From Escherichia coli (lineage in GTDB: Bacteria; Pseudomonadota; Gammaproteobacteria; Enterobacterales; Enterobacteriaceae), in NCBI RefSeq assembly GCF_051903065.1, contig NZ_CP178438.1: a stretch of 64,000 nucleotides of DNA; one strand, 5' to 3'. Position numbers and translations under genes: made by a program. Positions 3,627 to 41,793 of the stretch are shown here, piece after piece (within the stretch, counting starts at the first letter, position 1; each line of letters starts with the position of its first letter). Under the pieces are notes generated by a model. The model ran no database searches. It was given only the letters and a program-made list of their open reading frames with translations, and was not told the DNA's origin.

Positions 3627-5025
3627 GTTGTGCCTCTTGCTGACGCAACGCCACCGCCTGTTTGATTTTTGGCTCAAGCAGTTTTGCCACCGCGGCAAAG
3701 ACCGGCACGACCACCGAGTTACCGAGCTGGCGATAGGCCTGAGTGTCCGAAACCGGAATGCGGAATTTCGCTTCTCCCGGCGCTTCAAAACCCATTAAGC
3801 GCGCACATTCCCGAGGCGTTAACCGACGTGGACGATGTTGCTGATTCAGCGGATCGTCAAAGTCTTTCTCACCCGTGGCCATATCCCAGCCGCGATCGAT
3901 TAAAATTTCCGCGCCATCTTTGTAATAACGCGCAGACAGCGTACGCGTGACGCTTTGCGGATTGTTCGGATAAACCATTCCATAACCGAAGCCGTTACCG
4001 CGCGCCTGATGTTTTTTCGCATAACGATAGAGGTACTTCCACAGCACCGGCGTCAGGATATATTTCGCCTCGACCATCGGGTCCAGCAGCTGCGCCAGCG
4101 TCACTCGCTGTGCAGGGAAACATTCGCTGATATCACGCAGAGTAAAATCGGCTTTCAGATTAAGATCGCGACGAAAACCCACCAGCACGATGCGTTCACG
4201 GTGCTGCGGCAGGAAATGTTTACCATCGATGATTTTCGGATCGTCCGGCCCGTTATCTTCTGCATCAGCCACGTCATAGCCCAGTTCGTCCAGCGTCTGC
4301 ATGATGATGCGGAACGTTTTTCCTTTATCGTGACTTTTCAGGTTTTTGACGTTTTCGAGCACAAACATCGCCGGACGACGCGCGTCGATAATACGCACCA
4401 CATCAAAGAACAGCGTGCCCTGGGTATCGCAGGCAAAACCGTGCGCCCGCCCGAGCGAGTTCTTTTTCGATACGCCAGCCAGCGAAAATGGCTGACAAGG
4501 GAAACCGGCCAGTAAAACATCGTGTTCAGGAATGTGTTGACGAATATGTTCCGCCGCCGCCTCATCACTCACGCCTTCTTTATGGCTGAGGGTGATGTCG
4601 CGGATATCTTCATTAAAATGATGCGTCGCCGGGTCGCAATAATGATTGGCTTTATAAGTGCGTACCGCATGTTTGTTCCATTCGCTGGTAAACACGCACT
4701 GTCCGCCAATCGATTCAAAACCGCGACGGATGCCGCCAATTCCGGCAAATAGATCGATAAAGCGAAACGCATAATGCGGATGATGTGCCGGTGGTTTGGG
4801 TAACAACGTTTGCAGATGGGCGAACTCTTTCTCACTTAAACGGTGCCATGCCGAGTCATTCGCCAGCGCACGTTTTAAAATTGCCGCGCTCCAGTGATTC
4901 TCACCCACACCATTAAGCTGCGCCACCAGCGTTTTAACATCATAAATTTGCAGCAGTTTCTCCAGCATTGCCTGTGCGGCATTCCCGGTGCTGTATGAAT
5001 CGGTTACTGATATATTTTCCTGCAT
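3607..5025 (-). CDS. dcm: DNA-cytosine methyltransferase Dcm (CCWGG)
   Basis: 472 aa with C5-MTase motifs DLFAGIGG (motif I) and GFPCQPFS (motif IV catalytic Cys). Confidence 0.92.
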
Positions 5026-5091: not shown

Positions 5092-5787
5092 TCAGCCCGC
5101 GGGTGAAAACGCATCTATCACCTTGTGATCGACACCTTCATTCTCCCCCGCCAGTTCGGCACTGAGCTTCGCCATAAACTCGACTAAAAATTGCGCGTTG
5201 TGCTGCGCCAGCTGCTTGCCTCTTGCGGTTTGCATGGTTTGCGGTAGCTTCAGCAACTTAGTCTGGAAATGATCCAGCGCGTAGCGTTTATCATCAAGCG
5301 GGCGATGCTGTGCGAACGGATCTTCACCATCAAACAGCGCCATGCCCAATGCCCCTGAAACGGCAAACACGCGCGCCAGGCCAATCGCCCCCAGGGCTTC
5401 CAGCCGATCCGCATCCTGGACGATTTTAGCTTCCGTTGTTAAGGGGGCGATTTGCGCGCTGAAACTGTGAGCGGCAATGGCATGACAAACGGCCTCGATT
5501 TTCTCCGCCGGAAATTGCTCGAACTCTTCACGGAGCAGGCGACGCGTCTCTTCTGCCGCCAGGATTGAAGAACGCTGCCGTTGCGGATGATTTTTCGCCA
5601 GACTCACAATATCGTGGAAATAACAGGCGGTTAAAATCACCAGCATATCGACGTCATCATCTGCCGCCAGCTTCTGTGCCGTAGCCCAGACGCGGCGAAA
5701 ATGACACACGTCATGGGCCGCGTCCTGGTGCTGATGATGGTTTTTCAACCAGTTTTCGAACTGTGCCTGCCAGTGTTGTAAGTCCAT
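5092..5787 (-). CDS. yedJ: HD-domain phosphohydrolase YedJ
   Basis: 231-aa ORF; synteny downstream of dcm. Confidence 0.75.
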
Positions 5788-8537: not shown

Positions 8538-9389
8538 ATGACTGTTCAAACAAGTAAAAATCCGCAGGTCGATATTGCTGAAGATAATGCATTCTTCCCT
8601 TCAGAATATTCGCTTAGCCAATATACCAGTCCTGTCTCTGATCTTGATGGCGTGGACTATCCAAAACCTTATCGCGGTAAACATAAAATTCTGGTGATCG
8701 CCGCGGACGAACGTTATTTGCCGACCGATAACGGAAAACTGTTCTCGACCGGTAACCATCCGATTGAAACGTTGCTGCCGTTGTATCATCTCCATGCTGC
8801 AGGTTTCGAATTCGAAGTGGCGACCATTTCCGGTCTGATGACCAAGTTTGAATACTGGGCTATGCCGCACAAAGATGAAAAAGTAATGCCATTCTTTGAG
8901 CAGCATAAATCGTTGTTCCGCAATCCGAAGAAACTCGCGGATGTTGTCGCCAGCCTCAACGCTGATAGCGAATATGCAGCAATCTTTGTTCCTGGTGGTC
9001 ATGGCGCACTTATTGGTTTACCTGAAAGCCAGGACGTAGCTGCCGCTTTACAGTGGGCAATCAAAAATGACCGTTTTGTTATCTCCCTTTGCCACGGCCC
9101 GGCGGCTTTTCTGGCGCTTCGCCACGGCGATAACCCACTGAATGGTTATTCCATTTGCGCATTCCCAGACGCCGCAGACAAACAAACGCCAGAGATTGGC
9201 TATATGCCGGGTCATCTCACCTGGTACTTCGGCGAAGAGCTGAAGAAAATGGGCATGAACATTATTAATGACGACATCACCGGGCGAGTACATAAGGACC
9301 GTAAAGTTCTCACCGGCGACAGTCCTTTCGCAGCGAATGCGTTGGGTAAACTGGCGGCGCAGGAAATGCTGGCAGCTTACGCGGGTTAA
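8538..9389 (+). CDS. hchA: Hsp31 glyoxalase / protein deglycase HchA (DJ-1/PfpI family)
   Basis: 283 aa; recognised sequence MTVQTSKNPQVDIAEDNAFFPSEYSLSQYTSP... Confidence 0.9.
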   Translation: MTVQTSKNPQVDIAEDNAFFPSEYSLSQYTSPVSDLDGVDYPKPYRGKHKILVIAADERYLPTDNGKLFSTGNHPIETLLPLYHLHAAGFEFEVATISGLMTKFEYWAMPHKDEKVMPFFEQHKSLFRNPKKLADVVASLNADSEYAAIFVPGGHGALIGLPESQDVAAALQWAIKNDRFVISLCHGPAAFLALRHGDNPLNGYSICAFPDAADKQTPEIGYMPGHLTWYFGEELKKMGMNIINDDITGRVHKDRKVLTGDSPFAANALGKLAAQEMLAAYAG

Positions 9390-9424
9390 TCCCTGTTACG
9401 TTTGAATGTAAGCGCATAATCAAT

Positions 9425-9465
9425 CGCAGCCGCGTTAGTATTCACGACGTGGCTGCGTTTTTTCA
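9425..9465 (+). terminator. Hairpin plus T-run between convergent hchA and hprS
   Basis: CGCAGCC...GGCTGCG stem followed by TTTTTT. Confidence 0.45.
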
Positions 9466-9496
9466 CGGTTAATTTATGGCGTACTGAAGCCCTATG

Positions 9497-10855
9497 TTAA
9501 TTTCTTTGCGGCAACGTAATCCGGAACACATTATGCTTATTGAGATAGTGATACGTAGCACTTCCCCCATGTAATTCGGCAATCGCTTTGACTAAAGAAA
9601 GGCCTAGTCCCTGACCTACGGAATGACGCGAATTATCTCCCCGCCAAAATCTACGGAAGAGTTTTTCAGGCTCATTAATTTTCGTTCCAGGGCTGGCGAT
9701 ATCAATATTAAGATAGCTGTTGGTATCAAGAAAACTGGTTATATGAATACGCGATTTTTCTGGCGAATATCGAATAGCGTTAACAATAAGATTCGATAAC
9801 ATTCGTTGCAGTAAAATTTTATCCGCAAAGATTTGCTGATTGCACTCGACCTTAAAGCAAATCTCTTTCTCGTCTGAAAGATATTCAAGATAGTCCAACA
9901 AATTTTCGACTTCCTTATTGAGAGAAAGCGAGTCCAGTTTCACCAAAACATTGTTTTTATCTGCCCTGGCAAGAAACAGTATGTTCTCTGTTAACCGCGA
10001 AATATTTTCCAGTTCTTCAATGTTACCGGCAATTGTTTTTTGATATTCAGCGATACTTCTGGTTTGACTGAGCGTAACCTGATTCTGACCCAGTAATGCA
10101 TTAATTGGCGTTCTAAGTTCATGAGCGAGATCGTCAGCAAACTGACTTAGACGCTCAAAATCTTTGACTAAAGCATGATGCATTTTATTCAACGCCTGCC
10201 CAAGAGGTTTTAGTTCTCTCGGTAATGCGCTAACCTCAACAGGCTCCCGGCTATCGTTATAATTCAGCGCTTCCGTTACACCACTCAACTTTTTGATCTC
10301 TCGTAACCCCGTTCGGATTAACAGCGGACTTAATACTGAGCACAGTATAATGGCGACAATGCAAATTATAATGCTATTGATTTTATACTGTTCAAGCATG
10401 TTATGTCTGGCTGAAGCCAATTTAGCCACAGTAACCGTTAATGATGGCGAAACTTCATCAATATTAATTCGTAAAGCATCTATCTCTGTATCATTAATAA
10501 TGCTTCTGTAAATGCCAGCTGCGCTGATTGTCTCACTAGCAGGTATGTTATTTAACATGCCATCACTGACATTTGTCCGGTTAACAATTTTATTGATGCT
10601 ATCACCATGAATGATCAAGATATCCTGACTAACATCCATCATCCGGTTAAAGTACACAGGTAACGTATCTGGATTTACCCCATCAATTAACAACTGCTTG
10701 ATCTGTGCTGTCCGGTTAATGAGTGTTGTATCATCGCGCCATTTCAACTCACTTGCCAGGCCATTATAGAGAGTCCAGACAATTCCGGCGCCAGCAACAG
10801 ACAGCAGCAATATAAAAAGCAAGGTTAAACGGACGGTTATAGATAATCTTTTCAT
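9497..10855 (-). CDS. hprS: Sensor histidine kinase HprS (YedV)
   Basis: 452 aa; two TM segments, HisKA motif AHELRTPINAL, C-terminal ATPase G-boxes; stop overlaps hprR. Confidence 0.85.
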   Translation of the reverse strand: MKRLSITVRLTLLFILLLSVAGAGIVWTLYNGLASELKWRDDTTLINRTAQIKQLLIDGVNPDTLPVYFNRMMDVSQDILIIHGDSINKIVNRTNVSDGMLNNIPASETISAAGIYRSIINDTEIDALRINIDEVSPSLTVTVAKLASARHNMLEQYKINSIIICIVAIILCSVLSPLLIRTGLREIKKLSGVTEALNYNDSREPVEVSALPRELKPLGQALNKMHHALVKDFERLSQFADDLAHELRTPINALLGQNQVTLSQTRSIAEYQKTIAGNIEELENISRLTENILFLARADKNNVLVKLDSLSLNKEVENLLDYLEYLSDEKEICFKVECNQQIFADKILLQRMLSNLIVNAIRYSPEKSRIHITSFLDTNSYLNIDIASPGTKINEPEKLFRRFWRGDNSRHSVGQGLGLSLVKAIAELHGGSATYHYLNKHNVFRITLPQRN

Positions 10856-17637: not shown

Positions 17638-25620
<7,983 letters not shown>

Positions 25621-38079: not shown

Positions 38080-38823
38080 TTATAGCAGTGCCAGCAGGAA
38101 GACCAGTTCACCAAGCTCTATAGCAGCTCCCAGCGTATCGCCGGTTTGCCCGCCCAGCGTACGTTTGAGAAGCTGACCGAGGATGAAAATCGCCACCATC
38201 GTCACCACCATAGCAGCCACACCATGCATACCCGGCAATAATACGGCAGCAAAAATAGCGGCTAAGCCGAGTGTGACGCAGGTTTGTCGCCCATCAATTT
38301 TGCCAATGAACACATTGCCAAGCCCTTCTTCCCGGGCATAACGATGACGATACATCAATAATGCGGCAGTCCCGCGGCTGACCGCACATGCTGCCGCCAG
38401 CGATGCAAGGATCGGTTCGCCACGCAGAGCCAACTCGCTTAACACCAGAATCTTTGCCAGTACAACAAAAATCAATGCCAGACCGCCGTGGGTGCCTAAA
38501 CGGCTATCACGCATGATTTCCAACATGCGATCGCGGCTACGTGCAGAAAATACACCATCACAGGTATCGGCGAGGCCGTCCAGGTGGAATCCCCCGGTCA
38601 TCAGCGCCAGCACAAGTACGCTAAACAGTGCCGCCAGTGGTACGCCACACCATGCCTGCAGCACCATGAAGACCAGCCCGCTAATCGCGCCAAGCAATAA
38701 TCCAATTAAAGGAAAAGTAATAATACCGCGAGAATAATGCTCGAAATCCAGTCCCTGGGACCAGCGACGCGGTACAGGCAGACGCGTAATAAATGAGAGC
38801 ATCGCCCAAAATAATTTACTCAT
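38080..38823 (-). CDS. cobS: Cobalamin (5'-phosphate) synthase CobS
   Basis: 247 aa from [11 protein letters not shown] (ATG 38821-38823), overlapping the cobU stop as ATGA; polytopic membrane protein. Confidence 0.9.
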
Positions 38824-39365
38824 TTGATTTTTACTCCAATACCCGAAACCACCAGCCATACTTCATTAGCCGCAGCGGCCAGCTGCTGATTTACCCGCCC
38901 GGCAATATCACGAAAATGACGTGCCAGACGACTCTCCGGCACAATCCCCATTCCCACTTCGTTAGTCACTAATACAACCTTTGCGGGGCAACGTTGGCAG
39001 GCAGCAATCAACGACTGAATCTCAGCATTAATCGCCTGTTCCAGCGCCTGATAATCCCATTCATCAGGGTCTTTATCGCCGCCATAATCAAACAACAGAT
39101 TAGTCACCATTGTGGTAACGCATTCCAGCAACACAGCCTCATGCGGGTTAATGTCTGCATGAATTAATTGATCAAGATGTTGCCAGCGCTCCACTGTGTG
39201 CCAGTGCGCCGGGCGGCCTTGCCGATGATGTTCTATCCGTGCAGCCATCTCATCATCAAGGATTTGTGAGGTGGCGATATACAGAACCTGTGAAGAATCC
39301 CCAATAAGCGCCTCTGCATGGCGACTCTTCCCGCTCCGTGCGCCCCCCGTCACCAAAATCATCAT
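38820..39365 (-). CDS. cobU: Adenosylcobinamide kinase / adenosylcobinamide-phosphate guanylyltransferase CobU
   Basis: 181 aa; P-loop GGARSGKS at the N-terminus. Confidence 0.9.
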
Positions 39366-39498
39366 ACCGACTCCTGATTCAATTGTATGATGGTATTCAT
39401 TGAACAGAACAATGGATCCCCCACCGTTGCTGACCGCAAAACATTTACGCGATTAATACTGCGCGTAATATAATTAAAAATCCAGCATTCTCAATCCA

Positions 39499-39858
39499 TT
39501 ACGAAAGAAGATGGCATTGTGGAATAGCCAGACTTCCTCGTGTTAACGTCCGACAAAATGCGTCATTGACAGCGGTTTCTCTGGAATGACAGATTTCATT
39601 CAGATAATGGATTAATGCTACAGCCCCACCAGCCGGACCAGTCAGTAAACGGGCATTGTGTTCTGCAATCAAAATTACCGTCGTTCCCTCAGAATGAGCG
39701 AGCCATTCTGGTACGGATATCTCGCTTTCAGCTGCTATCAATAGCTGCACTGAATAATCGCTATACGCATCTGATAATGATTGCACAGACCCACCGTTAA
39801 GAGGCTGGAAATCTTGCTGCCAGTCCTCACGGATAAAACCGCAGCCTCTACAGTGCAT
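39499..39858 (-). pseudogene. Orphan ORF immediately upstream of cobU; possible remnant of a lost cbi/cob gene (identity unverified)
   Basis: 119-aa ORF with no recognisable start context. It sits where Salmonella carries cbiP directly upstream of cobU. Confidence 0.3.
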
Positions 39859-40133
39859 TGTTGGTCAGTGCCTGCGAAGCAGACATTATCGCGCTGGTGC
39901 TTAATGCGGACGCACCGTGGTCACCTTTTTCGCCTGGCTTTATCTCGTCAATGAATCGTCCGATCATTGGAGTAGTCACCAAAGCAGATTTAGCCAGCAT
40001 GGAAGAAATATCTTTGGTGAAAGTTTGGTTACGGGAAGCTGGATCGCACAACGTGTTAGTAACCAGTGCGGTTAATAACAATAGAGTTGCAGAACTTTTT
40101 GCCTTGCTTCATACAGAAGATGTCTGTCGCTAA
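39858..40133 (+). pseudogene. C-terminal fragment of a EutP/PduV-family small GTPase (gene remnant)
   Basis: 91-aa ORF lacking the N-terminal P-loop but containing [11 protein letters not shown] (G4-like TKxD motif) in the arrangement seen in EutP/PduV proteins; no RBS. Confidence 0.4.
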
Positions 40134-40233
40134 TTTCGATAGGTTATCAGATGGGAATGATGACTGTGATACACAGAAAAGAATCAATGAGCAATGAGGG
40201 TTGCCGGGCAACCCTCATTGAATAAAACAGGAA

Positions 40234-40563
40234 TTACTTCGCTTCGCCGTTTTTCATTTCGCCCATAGCTTTCAGCTTCTTGGAGATATCGCGGCGTTCT
40301 TTGGAGAGCTCGGCATTTTTGATGATGTAATCGTCAACGCGATCTTCATAGTCACCTTTCATGCTAGCGATGATGCCCTGGATTGCTTCAACGCTCATCC
40401 CCGGCTTGATGTAATCACTCAGGTTGTCCAGCAACAGGACGCGCTTCTGGTTGTCACGGATCTTTTTCTCAACGTCCTGAATTTCACGTTGCAGTTTGTT
40501 CTTACGACGGAACAGACGAACAAATTCCAGTACGTCCTGGAATGAAGGCTTGGTAGTTTCCAT
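40234..40563 (-). CDS. yeeX: DUF496 protein YeeX
   Basis: 109 aa from [41 protein letters not shown]. Confidence 0.85.
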
Positions 40564-40734
40564 TTTTATACCCCTGATAATGTGAGAGTCGGATTCGTTT
40601 AAGCAACCGCTATTCGTTAGGGCCAACATTACTCATAGCTGCCGCAGATGACAATGCTTTTATCCCTTTTCACTATCATACCCTTTATCCTTGCTGAATC
40701 GAAGCAGCAGCAAGATGATTCTGAAGTTCAGGAA

Positions 40735-41793
40735 TTATTTGCGCAAGGCCCGGCAAATCAGATTCGATAGCAACTCAAGCTGATGTGCCGTTTCCATGTT
40801 CAGCCACACATAACCATAGATTGGTGTTTCCACAACCTTCAGGTCATGGTGGTTATTGAGCAACTGACGCAGCTCTTCCACAGCATCGTTCAATTTTTCC
40901 GTATTGGCAAAAACCGGCTGCGGATTACCTTCGTACAGCGCATGAACAAGGCTCAGCAGTATTTGCTGCATCATGTGCTGGGTATCACGAAGTTTTTGCG
41001 CGTTCAATAACACGAAATGGCTGGGGCGCGTGGCCCAGTACGCATTGATTTGCAACTCCAGCATACAAACCAGATTGCGATTAATGGTCTGGATACCTTC
41101 ATATATCGATTTTGGAATACGAGTTTCTTTGCTGGCGGGCGCAATCAGCCCACGCATTTTCACGGCATCGGTCAAGAGTTTTTGTAGATGGCTTTCCAGA
41201 CGTGGGCGTTCGAGTAAGTTCGGTGAGAATGCAGATTGATAGACCCGATTATACTCGGTCAGACTTTTCGCCAGTTGAATACGCCAGTGGATGAACGCCC
41301 GTTGTGGCCAGATACCGGTAAACAACATTGCCAGTAAAGAGCCGAGGATCACATCGCCGCTTCGCCATAACGCCGTATCAATTTCACCTGTCGGGGAACC
41401 CACAACAATTGCCAGCGTCACCCCAATCAATAATCCTTGATACGGTTTCTTGCCCAGCGCCAGCCAACCGCAAAGAAACATAGCCGCCGCGCACCAGACT
41501 AACATCAGCGGTAACGAAATTAACTCCAGTTGCAGAGCGATAAGACCTAAAATCGAACCCAACACCGTACCGCCAATACGTTCGAAGGCGCGAGGGACAA
41601 CGTTACCCCAGAACGAGATTGGCCCCATAATCACCACCATGGTGACCAGCGGCCAGGTGCTTTCCGGGATAGTAAACAGGCGGATAATGAGAAAAGTGAG
41701 CAGGAATGCCAGCGCGACCCGAGTACCATGCACAATGCGGTAATGGCGGTATACCCGGATTTCAAACGGGCTTAATGACTTATCGGCACGCAC
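40735..41793 (-). CDS. yeeA: Inner-membrane protein YeeA (FUSC-like)
   Basis: 352 aa with N-terminal TM bundle and soluble C-terminal domain; synteny. Confidence 0.8.
   Translation of the reverse strand: MRADKSLSPFEIRVYRHYRIVHGTRVALAFLLTFLIIRLFTIPESTWPLVTMVVIMGPISFWGNVVPRAFERIGGTVLGSILGLIALQLELISLPLMLVWCAAAMFLCGWLALGKKPYQGLLIGVTLAIVVGSPTGEIDTALWRSGDVILGSLLAMLFTGIWPQRAFIHWRIQLAKSLTEYNRVYQSAFSPNLLERPRLESHLQKLLTDAVKMRGLIAPASKETRIPKSIYEGIQTINRNLVCMLELQINAYWATRPSHFVLLNAQKLRDTQHMMQQILLSLVHALYEGNPQPVFANTEKLNDAVEELRQLLNNHHDLKVVETPIYGYVWLNMETAHQLELLSNLICRALRK

Follow-up and report, generated by a model that had tools for sequence, protein, structure and literature searches.

In the window, the 64-kb stretch of Escherichia coli DNA analysed here, the minus strand carries cobT, cobS, cobU, a gap of 868 bp, tmaR (also named yeeX), yeeA and sbmC. 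The gap spans positions 39366–40233 and is bordered by two intact genes. At its left edge, cobU (38820–39365, minus strand) is a 181-aa ORF with 98.9% identity to the CobU of E. coli O121 and corresponds to cobU in NZ_CP083585.1. At its right edge, tmaR (40234–40563, minus strand) encodes a protein that is 100% identical to TmaR WP_000450409.1. E. coli ECNB21-M121 matches a query of 1,001 bp around the gap at 100% identity. In that genome, RefSeq calls cobU, a "hypothetical protein" (the 119-aa ORF described below), an EutP/PduV pseudogene "missing N-terminus", and tmaR.

The gap contains two ORFs whose start codons overlap and diverge. One is on the minus strand (39499–39858, 119 codons, ATG start; RefSeq "hypothetical protein" WP_047623691.1) and the other is on the plus strand (39858–40133, 91 codons, TTG start). 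No Shine-Dalgarno-like sequence is found upstream of the minus-strand ATG (...CGCAGGCACTGACCAACA-ATG) or of the plus-strand TTG (...CCGCAGCCTCTACAGTGCA-TTG). The preliminary description had reported two back-to-back orphan ORFs without translation signals between cobU and yeeX; its coordinates are exact, and there are no convincing ribosome-binding sites. An intact gene with good start signals was looked for as evidence against the reading as remnants, and neither ORF has a Shine-Dalgarno-like sequence. Both starts depend on a single C-to-T difference from intact pduV at position 39858, which makes the minus-strand ATG (39856–39858) and the plus-strand TTG (39858–39860). In the alignment, intact pduV reads GCACTG where the window reads GCATTG. 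Strain E200086, which has the same deletion, reads GCTCTG at the equivalent position and has no ATG there. We conclude that both orphan ORFs are chance reading frames over pseudogene fragments.

The plus-strand ORF lies within a 3' remnant of pduV that comprises codons 50–147 and the stop codon (39835–40133, plus strand) and is called a pseudogene "missing N-terminus" by RefSeq. The ORF matches the Pfam family PF10662 (EutP/PduV GTPase) with an E value of 3.3e-25 over model positions 50–142 of 143. It also matches TIGR02528 (E 2.7e-21) with 76.3 bits, which is below the curated cutoff of 138.35. Both matches agree with the earlier reading of this ORF as the C-terminal two-thirds of a PduV/EutP GTPase. 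The ORF is a fragment of an EutP/PduV family member and not an intact member. Compared with residues 50–147 of the intact, 147-aa E. coli PduV, the copy in the window has 88.8% identity. This amounts to 11 replacements in 98 residues, compared with identities of 100% for TmaR and 99.7% for YeeA. The remnant shares 71.7% nucleotide identity with Salmonella pduV. In intact E. coli PduV, the G1 P-loop GPSQCGKT is at residues 8–15 and DTPG (G3) is at residues 42–45. The window copy begins at residue 50 and contains neither the G1 P-loop (GxxxxGK[ST]) nor G3 (DxxG). The G4 motif ([NT]KxD) is kept as TKAD, within an 11-residue stretch encoded at 39963–39995. Without the P-loop and DTPG, the piece therefore cannot bind or hydrolyse GTP. 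It is also not encoded in a pdu or eut microcompartment operon and has no start signals of its own; no other pdu gene is present in the 64-kb window.

The minus-strand ORF is chimeric. Its codons 1–7 are antisense to pduV, codons 8 to approximately 93 correspond to cbiG codons 34 to approximately 119, and the remainder is a tail. The cbiG part belongs to a 5' remnant of the cobalt-precorrin-5A hydrolase gene (39519–39839, minus strand), made up of codons 34 to approximately 119 and a diverged tail, as identified by tblastn and profile search. In tblastn searches, CbiG residues 34/41–119 of Citrobacter, Salmonella and Klebsiella align to window positions 39837/39819–39601 with E values of 3e-8 to 7e-6. 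The ORF matches the NCBIfam CbiG model NF004463 at positions 40–125 of 351 with an E value of 1.2e-3 and 18 bits, where the curated cutoff is 546 bits and full-length CbiG is approximately 351 aa. Full-length CbiG is thus not present: only residues 34 to approximately 119 are represented, and the middle and C-terminal (CobE-like) domains are absent. The conserved RVLAPLV stretch of real CbiG is deleted in the remnant. The tail weakly resembles CbiG residues 310–329, with E values of 1.7–3.4 that are not significant. A Pfam search with the 119-aa ORF gives no match even at an E value of 10, so its identity is taken from the NCBIfam match and the Citrobacter and Salmonella tblastn alignments. 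In a protein database search with the same ORF, all matches are short ORFs of Escherichia and Shigella; full-length CbiG is not among them, a result subject to the word-index limit of the search.

The untruncated relatives of this ORF are more clearly related to CbiG. The window sequence is 95.5% identical to residues 34–145 of a 145-aa cbiG' ORF in pdu-positive E. coli. This untruncated ORF matches positions 1–126 of 351 of the CbiG profile with an E value of 1.7e-21. The 144–145-aa database relative of the minus-strand ORF starts with MKTIKPESIALFCL. In tblastn searches, it aligns from residue 1 to residues 112–118 with the cbiG genes of Citrobacter, Salmonella and Klebsiella (E 1e-20 to 1e-24), where the start of cbiG is 8.1 kb upstream of cobU. 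AlphaFold2 predicts an alpha/beta fold for the untruncated, 145-aa relative, with a moderate pLDDT of 72.5. A Foldseek search of the PDB with this model gives only generic Rossmann-like matches (E ≥ 0.01) and does not help to assign the family. Relative to the fold predicted for the 145-aa protein, the minus-strand ORF of the window lacks beta1-alpha1-beta2.

Between the cbiG remnant and cobU, positions 39366–39518 (minus strand) are a dead 3' remnant of cbiP, corresponding to approximately the last 53 codons of the cobyric acid synthase gene. This assignment is based on nucleotide colinearity. The segment is 64–70% identical (E 1e-15 to 3e-24) to the stretch of approximately 150 nt that immediately precedes cobU in Citrobacter, Salmonella and Klebsiella, the 3' end of the 506-aa cbiP of those genera. 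An intact CbiP frame of approximately 506 aa ending just upstream of cobU is not present, as only approximately the last 150 nt are recognisable and these contain two stops and a frameshift. CbiP residues 454–478 align to 39518–39444 with the two stops in frame, and the rest aligns only in another frame. The remnant is mostly outside the minus-strand ORF. CbiP was considered as the source of that ORF and was ruled out, as the CbiP similarity is confined to 39366–39518 and is out of frame. The preliminary description had proposed CbiP for the minus-strand fragment; this is correct for the approximately 150 bp at 39366–39518 and incorrect for the ORF, which is a 5' fragment of cbiG. The cbiP remnant is the best-conserved segment of the gap, with a mean identity of 0.862 across species. 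Between two deletion alleles it is 98.7% identical, compared with 92–96% for the cbiG and pduV remnants.

Following the pduV stop, positions 40134–40192 form a spacer with no recognisable gene remnant in blastn and tblastn searches that included PduW and PduX. PduW and PduX had been put forward as further possible sources of remnants; in tblastn searches of the gap they give chance matches only (E above 0.6), and the pduW-pduX region of Salmonella has no blastn match to the gap. Between the spacer and tmaR, a perfect 13-bp stem-loop is present at 40193–40219, between the convergent pduV remnant and tmaR and approximately 14–16 nt past the tmaR stop. Its centroid energy is −21 kcal/mol and its minimum free energy is −22.3, with a z score of −4.8, and none of 200 shuffled sequences is as stable. 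The stem-loop has no canonical U-tract, and a consensus terminator scan of the gap gives no sites and does not call the hairpin. It probably marks the end of the tmaR transcript. At the same place in Salmonella there is a hairpin of 11 bp with another sequence.

Comparison with pdu-positive E. coli places the three remnants in a single larger locus. In E. coli O121 GTVSS-020, the gene order is cobU, the cbiP tail, the 145-aa cbiG' ORF, a cobalamin riboswitch, pocR, pduF, pduA–pduV and tmaR. The pduV stop in this genome is approximately 100 bp from the tmaR stop, and pduW and pduX are absent. By blastn and direct alignment, window positions 38800–39839 correspond to positions 24949–23910 of pdu-positive E. 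coli O121 (L006) with 98.2% identity, and positions 39835–40700 correspond to L006 positions 6660–5795 with 97.0% identity. The two arms overlap by 5 nt (AAAAC), and the window thus differs from O121 by one deletion of 17,254 bp with endpoints at cbiG' codon 33/34 and pduV codon 49/50. The junction (39831–39839) reads CCTCAC-GGAT-AAAAC-CGCAG. In the intact locus, AAAAC occurs at either side, as microhomology. The preceding GGAT (39831–39834) matches neither arm, and the breakpoint is therefore placed only within 39831–39839. At this junction, E200086 has CGAT instead of GGAT. The preliminary description had recognised the fragments as deletion remnants of cbi and pdu genes, and it was right in kind; the cbiG and pduV homology is far beyond chance. 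It had used Salmonella as the comparator; the appropriate reference is instead pdu-positive E. coli, against which a single 17,254-bp deletion separates the two forms.

The gap is very probably a non-functional, composite deletion scar that was made in at least two stages. The first stage would be old and genus-wide, with deletions in the cbi operon taking out the genes for de novo cobalamin synthesis. These deletions would have left, upstream of cobUST, the B12 riboswitch, a 44-codon cbiA' stub, approximately the first third of cbiG and approximately the last 150 nt of cbiP. The divergent pocR-pduF-pduA–V cluster, ending beside tmaR/yeeX, would have been kept intact at this stage. The second stage would be specific to this allele, a single deletion of 17,254 bp that removed the riboswitch, cbiA', pocR, pduF, pduA–pduU and the P-loop half of pduV. 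What remained would be cbiP' (39366–39518), cbiG' (39519–39839) and pduV' (39835–40133).

The pocR, pduF and pduA–B genes are found together with the same cbiA'/cbiG'/cbiP' scar in E. whittamii, E. albertii, E. marmotae, Escherichia sp. E4736 and strain E69. In these five relatives, the pdu genes were traced through pduC in the two longer loci. Since the sampled Escherichia lineages share both the scar and the pdu cluster, the cbi loss predates their split and the pdu-positive form is the older one. The pdu-positive arrangement is, on this sequence comparison, the likely ancestral state.

Other lineages have lost the pdu genes independently. E1V33 keeps pduV 111–147 and cbiG' 98–140, MOD1-EC7003 keeps pduV 77–147 and cbiG' 85–143, and TW10828 has another, different pair of deletion endpoints. 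In E. coli, pdu has been lost from the cobU-yeeX interval repeatedly and independently, with at least five different endpoint pairs. Because of these repeated losses, the contiguous allele in the window is a derived deletion and not a pristine site. The contiguous, window-type allele occurs in 198 (approximately 3.6%) of 5,426 complete E. coli genomes, and a 121-nt probe that spans the junction detects 137 of these 198. Approximately 645 of the 5,426 (approximately 12%) are pdu-positive. In the remaining genomes, the arms are separated or otherwise truncated. The variable presence of pdu in E. coli is known (PMC9220930). No paper describing the cobU-yeeX scar was found in the literature searched. 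The scar is real, ordinary and already known, in that the remnants are in RefSeq and the presence/absence polymorphism of pdu is established.

The pdu-positive relatives contain a longer form of the cbiG remnant outside the sequence of the window. In all six of the pdu-positive Escherichia lineages compared, the riboswitch is followed by the 44-codon cbiA' stub, a cbiG' ORF of 144–145 codons, and then cobUST. The TGA of cbiA' overlaps the ATG of cbiG' (ATGA), and neither ORF is interrupted in any of the six. The cbiG' frame is open even in E. albertii, which lacks cobT and has an apparently frameshifted cobU.

A codon model of cbiG' gives an omega of 0.54 (2ΔlnL of 16.9 versus omega = 1) and values of 1.2–1.3, which are not significant, in the other two frames; the test uses six taxa only, and three of the six sequences were found via a protein database, which favours open ORFs. 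For the CbiG-homologous codons 1–118, omega is 0.49 (2ΔlnL of 16.3). Identity by codon position is 0.77 at third positions versus 0.85 and 0.875 at first and second positions. In neutral simulations with substitutions only, on the estimated tree and at 0.55 substitutions per nt, all six copies are free of stops in 1 of 5,000 runs. The intact cbiA'/cbiG' leader form may therefore be maintained by selection in these relatives, although the balance of probability is tilted somewhat against this. If it is, its role might be that of a translated leader through which riboswitch-controlled transcription escapes Rho-dependent polarity and extends to cobUST. Alternatively, cbiG' might be a small CbiG-N-domain protein with its own function.

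In the same relatives, codons 27–145, the counterpart of the window ORF, have an omega of 0.60, significantly below 1, and the parent cbiG' ORF may therefore not be fully dead. This does not extend to the window. The leader idea does not rescue the window ORF, which has lost 33 codons together with the riboswitch, cbiA' and the coupling, and a function for the truncated cbiG' copy is highly improbable at best. The open frames in the gap, the RefSeq CDS for the 119-aa ORF and the departure from neutrality of the 144-aa parent ORF in pdu-positive species could be read as signs that the gap holds at least one real small gene, encoding a CbiG-N-like protein of 119 aa, a C-terminal PduV protein of 91 aa, or both. 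This reading is very unlikely. As described above, neither start has a Shine-Dalgarno sequence, the one substitution that made both starts is absent in E200086, the 119-aa ORF has no Pfam match, and the PduV piece is without the motifs needed to bind and hydrolyse GTP. The window ORF is also without its parent's start, translational coupling, riboswitch, promoter and predicted beta1-alpha1-beta2. The Shigella dysenteriae version has a further internal deletion of 23 aa. Under the preferred reading, in which both are chance frames over a scar, the RefSeq 119-aa "hypothetical protein" is best treated as a pseudogene fragment.

The deletion also bears on the expression of cobUST. In pdu-positive O121, the segment deleted from the window includes an annotated cobalamin riboswitch. 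An Rfam scan of 38700–40800 at E values up to 1 gives no match, hence no cobalamin riboswitch or sRNA in the scar. The strain would be unable to use 1,2-propanediol through Pdu, and its cobUST genes would have lost riboswitch and PocR-linked control. Their transcription would then start at a promoter within the scar or come from tmaR read-through. The predicted phenotype is Pdu-negative, with cobinamide salvage (cobUST) kept outside its riboswitch and PocR-linked context.

A pair of sigma-70-like hexamers on the minus strand (39467–39494, TTGAGA-16-TATATT), found by a consensus scan, is a possible cobUST promoter and is located approximately 100 nt upstream of the cobU ATG. It has 10 of 12 consensus matches and is a lead only, as one such site was found versus a shuffle expectation of 1.6. 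The scar might persist because cobUST now uses it as promoter and 5' leader, which would add to the pseudogene reading and not replace it. The position of this site within cbiP', the best-conserved segment of the scar, is consistent with this, as is the shared minus-strand orientation of tmaR, the scar and cobUST. Lawrence and Roth reportedly found, in 1995, several promoters for the cob operon of E. coli, which also counts in its favour. However, shuffled sequence contains promoter-like sites at least as often, conservation of the −10 hexamer does not extend across species, and a leader function would explain only the approximately 150 bp nearest cobU and not cbiG' or pduV'. A role as promoter and leader is thus doubtful. 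The scar itself matters little beyond bookkeeping. Wider interest is limited to the apparently constrained cbiA'/cbiG' translated leader of the pdu-positive relatives.

In K-12, the cobU-yeeX interval contains the same three remnants in the same order and orientation, and RefSeq marks them as partial or as pseudogenes (including a cbiG-derived "cobalamin biosynthesis protein" pseudogene next to IS5). Approximately 12.7 kb of IS5, IS2 and CP4-44 island DNA, with genes disrupted by IS2, separates the fragments in K-12, whereas nothing lies between them in the window and the junction is different. K-12 keeps less of both fragments. Its cbiG' is cut at IS5, and it has a 60-aa PduV' that begins at approximately codon 88, compared with codon 50 in the window. 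This 60-aa fragment, at the end of CP4-44, is yoeF. The left arm of K-12 ends at the equivalent of window position 39670, at IS5, and its right arm begins at the counterpart of 39951, so that 280 bp of the window, the junction among them, are missing from K-12. In tblastn searches with K-12 proteins, no homologs of IS5, IS2, Ag43, YeeR, YeeS, CbeA or CbtA are found in the 64-kb window, which agrees with the earlier statement that IS5 and CP4-44 are present here in K-12 and absent from the window.

The cobU-yeeX interval is a recognised CP4-44 site; K-12 and B carry the island there, and in W and Crooks the site is empty (PMC3032704). With no island genes in the window, the window could be taken for the ancestral, unoccupied site that received IS5 and CP4-44 in K-12. 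This is most unlikely, given that K-12 lacks the 280 bp described above and that in the other sampled Escherichia species the same two fragments flank an intact pdu cluster. In addition, halves of different genes fused head to head are the signature of a deletion and not of an attachment site. Because K-12 keeps less of both fragments, neither the K-12 form nor the window form is a simple insertion or excision product of the other, and the description of the window as an uninterrupted form of the K-12 site does not hold. In a weaker version, K-12 could have arisen from the window allele by insertion and an IS-mediated deletion of flanking sequence.

In Salmonella enterica, the neighbourhood is the same: cobUST borders the region at one end, and yeeX, yeeA, sbmC and dacD border it at the opposite end. 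The homologous pieces have the same order and orientation. The run is cobUST, cbiP...cbiA, pocR, pduF, pduA...X and yeeX. In line with the preliminary description, which placed the cbi and pdu operons of Salmonella between cobU and yeeX, pduV-pduW-pduX adjoins yeeX and the cbi genes adjoin cobU. Salmonella has all 17 cbi genes as well as pduW and pduX, whereas the window has no trace of pduW or pduX. Homologs of PocR, PduF and the other Pdu proteins are likewise not found in the 64-kb window. Salmonella and the window share 72% nucleotide identity for pduV and 30–35% protein identity for the cbiG piece.

The pdu-positive E. coli (among them O121 GTVSS-020 and E24377A) and the pdu-positive Escherichia species have flanks and a cbiP'/cbiG' scar of the same kind as the window, and the arms are 97–98% identical in nucleotide sequence. 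They differ from the window in keeping the B12 riboswitch, the cbiA' leader, the full cbiG' of 144–145 codons, pocR, pduF and pduA–V, all of which the window has lost with the 17,254 bp.

The pdu cluster is lost repeatedly at the cobU-yeeX locus. In addition to the deletion in the window, three more cbiG'-to-pduV deletions are independent and have differing endpoints. These are found in E. coli TW10828 (locus L005, 2748-2754), Escherichia sp. E1V33 (locus L008, about 9200-9850) and Escherichia sp. MOD1-EC7003 (locus L086, about 5140-5530). The window and L092, a second strain with the window's deletion, are 98.7% identical in the cbiP' segment beside cobU (39366-39518). Within 39519-40133, identity is 96.2% in cbiG' and 92.0% in pduV'. 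This pduV' divergence is unusually high for a within-species comparison, and recombination or an old allele are possible explanations.

In pdu-positive Escherichia, a B12 riboswitch is followed, in the direction of cobU, by a cbiA' stub ORF of 44 codons, an ATGA overlap, a cbiG' ORF of 144-145 codons and 133 nt leading to cobU. This cbiA'/cbiG' leader region lies at 23420-24384 of the E. coli O121 locus (L006) and is also present upstream of cobU in the pdu-positive loci L007, L009, L087, L089 and L090. Neither ORF is interrupted in any of the six pdu-positive lineages examined. Across these six lineages, the codon-model selection ratio (omega) of cbiG' is approximately 0.5 and significantly below 1; the two remaining frames of the cbiG' region have omega values of 1.2-1.3. 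The cbiA'/cbiG' ORFs of pdu-positive Escherichia may represent a selected translated leader or a small protein.

In E. albertii GCA_024394735.1 (L087), the cobU region is altered (4435-4958 and downstream). Here cobU is uncalled and has 4 extra nucleotides near codon 10; there is no cobT, and ldtA directly follows cobS. The locus retains an intact pdu cluster and an intact cbiG' ORF. Cobinamide salvage appears to be decaying in this genome of a pdu-positive species.

Some E. coli and E. fergusonii contain a second, divergent PduV type with 69-73% identity to the PduV of the cobU-yeeX locus. Its representatives are P0096 from E. fergusonii and P0077, a 146-aa protein labelled E. coli and found on 51 contigs. 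Their presence is a hint of a separate pdu locus, possibly acquired horizontally.

A stable hairpin is located just beyond the tmaR/yeeX stop codon in both the window (40193-40219) and the Salmonella locus L093 (7615-7639), with no U-tract after the stem in either. The position is common to the two, but the stem sequences differ, with 13 bp in the window compared to 11 bp in Salmonella.
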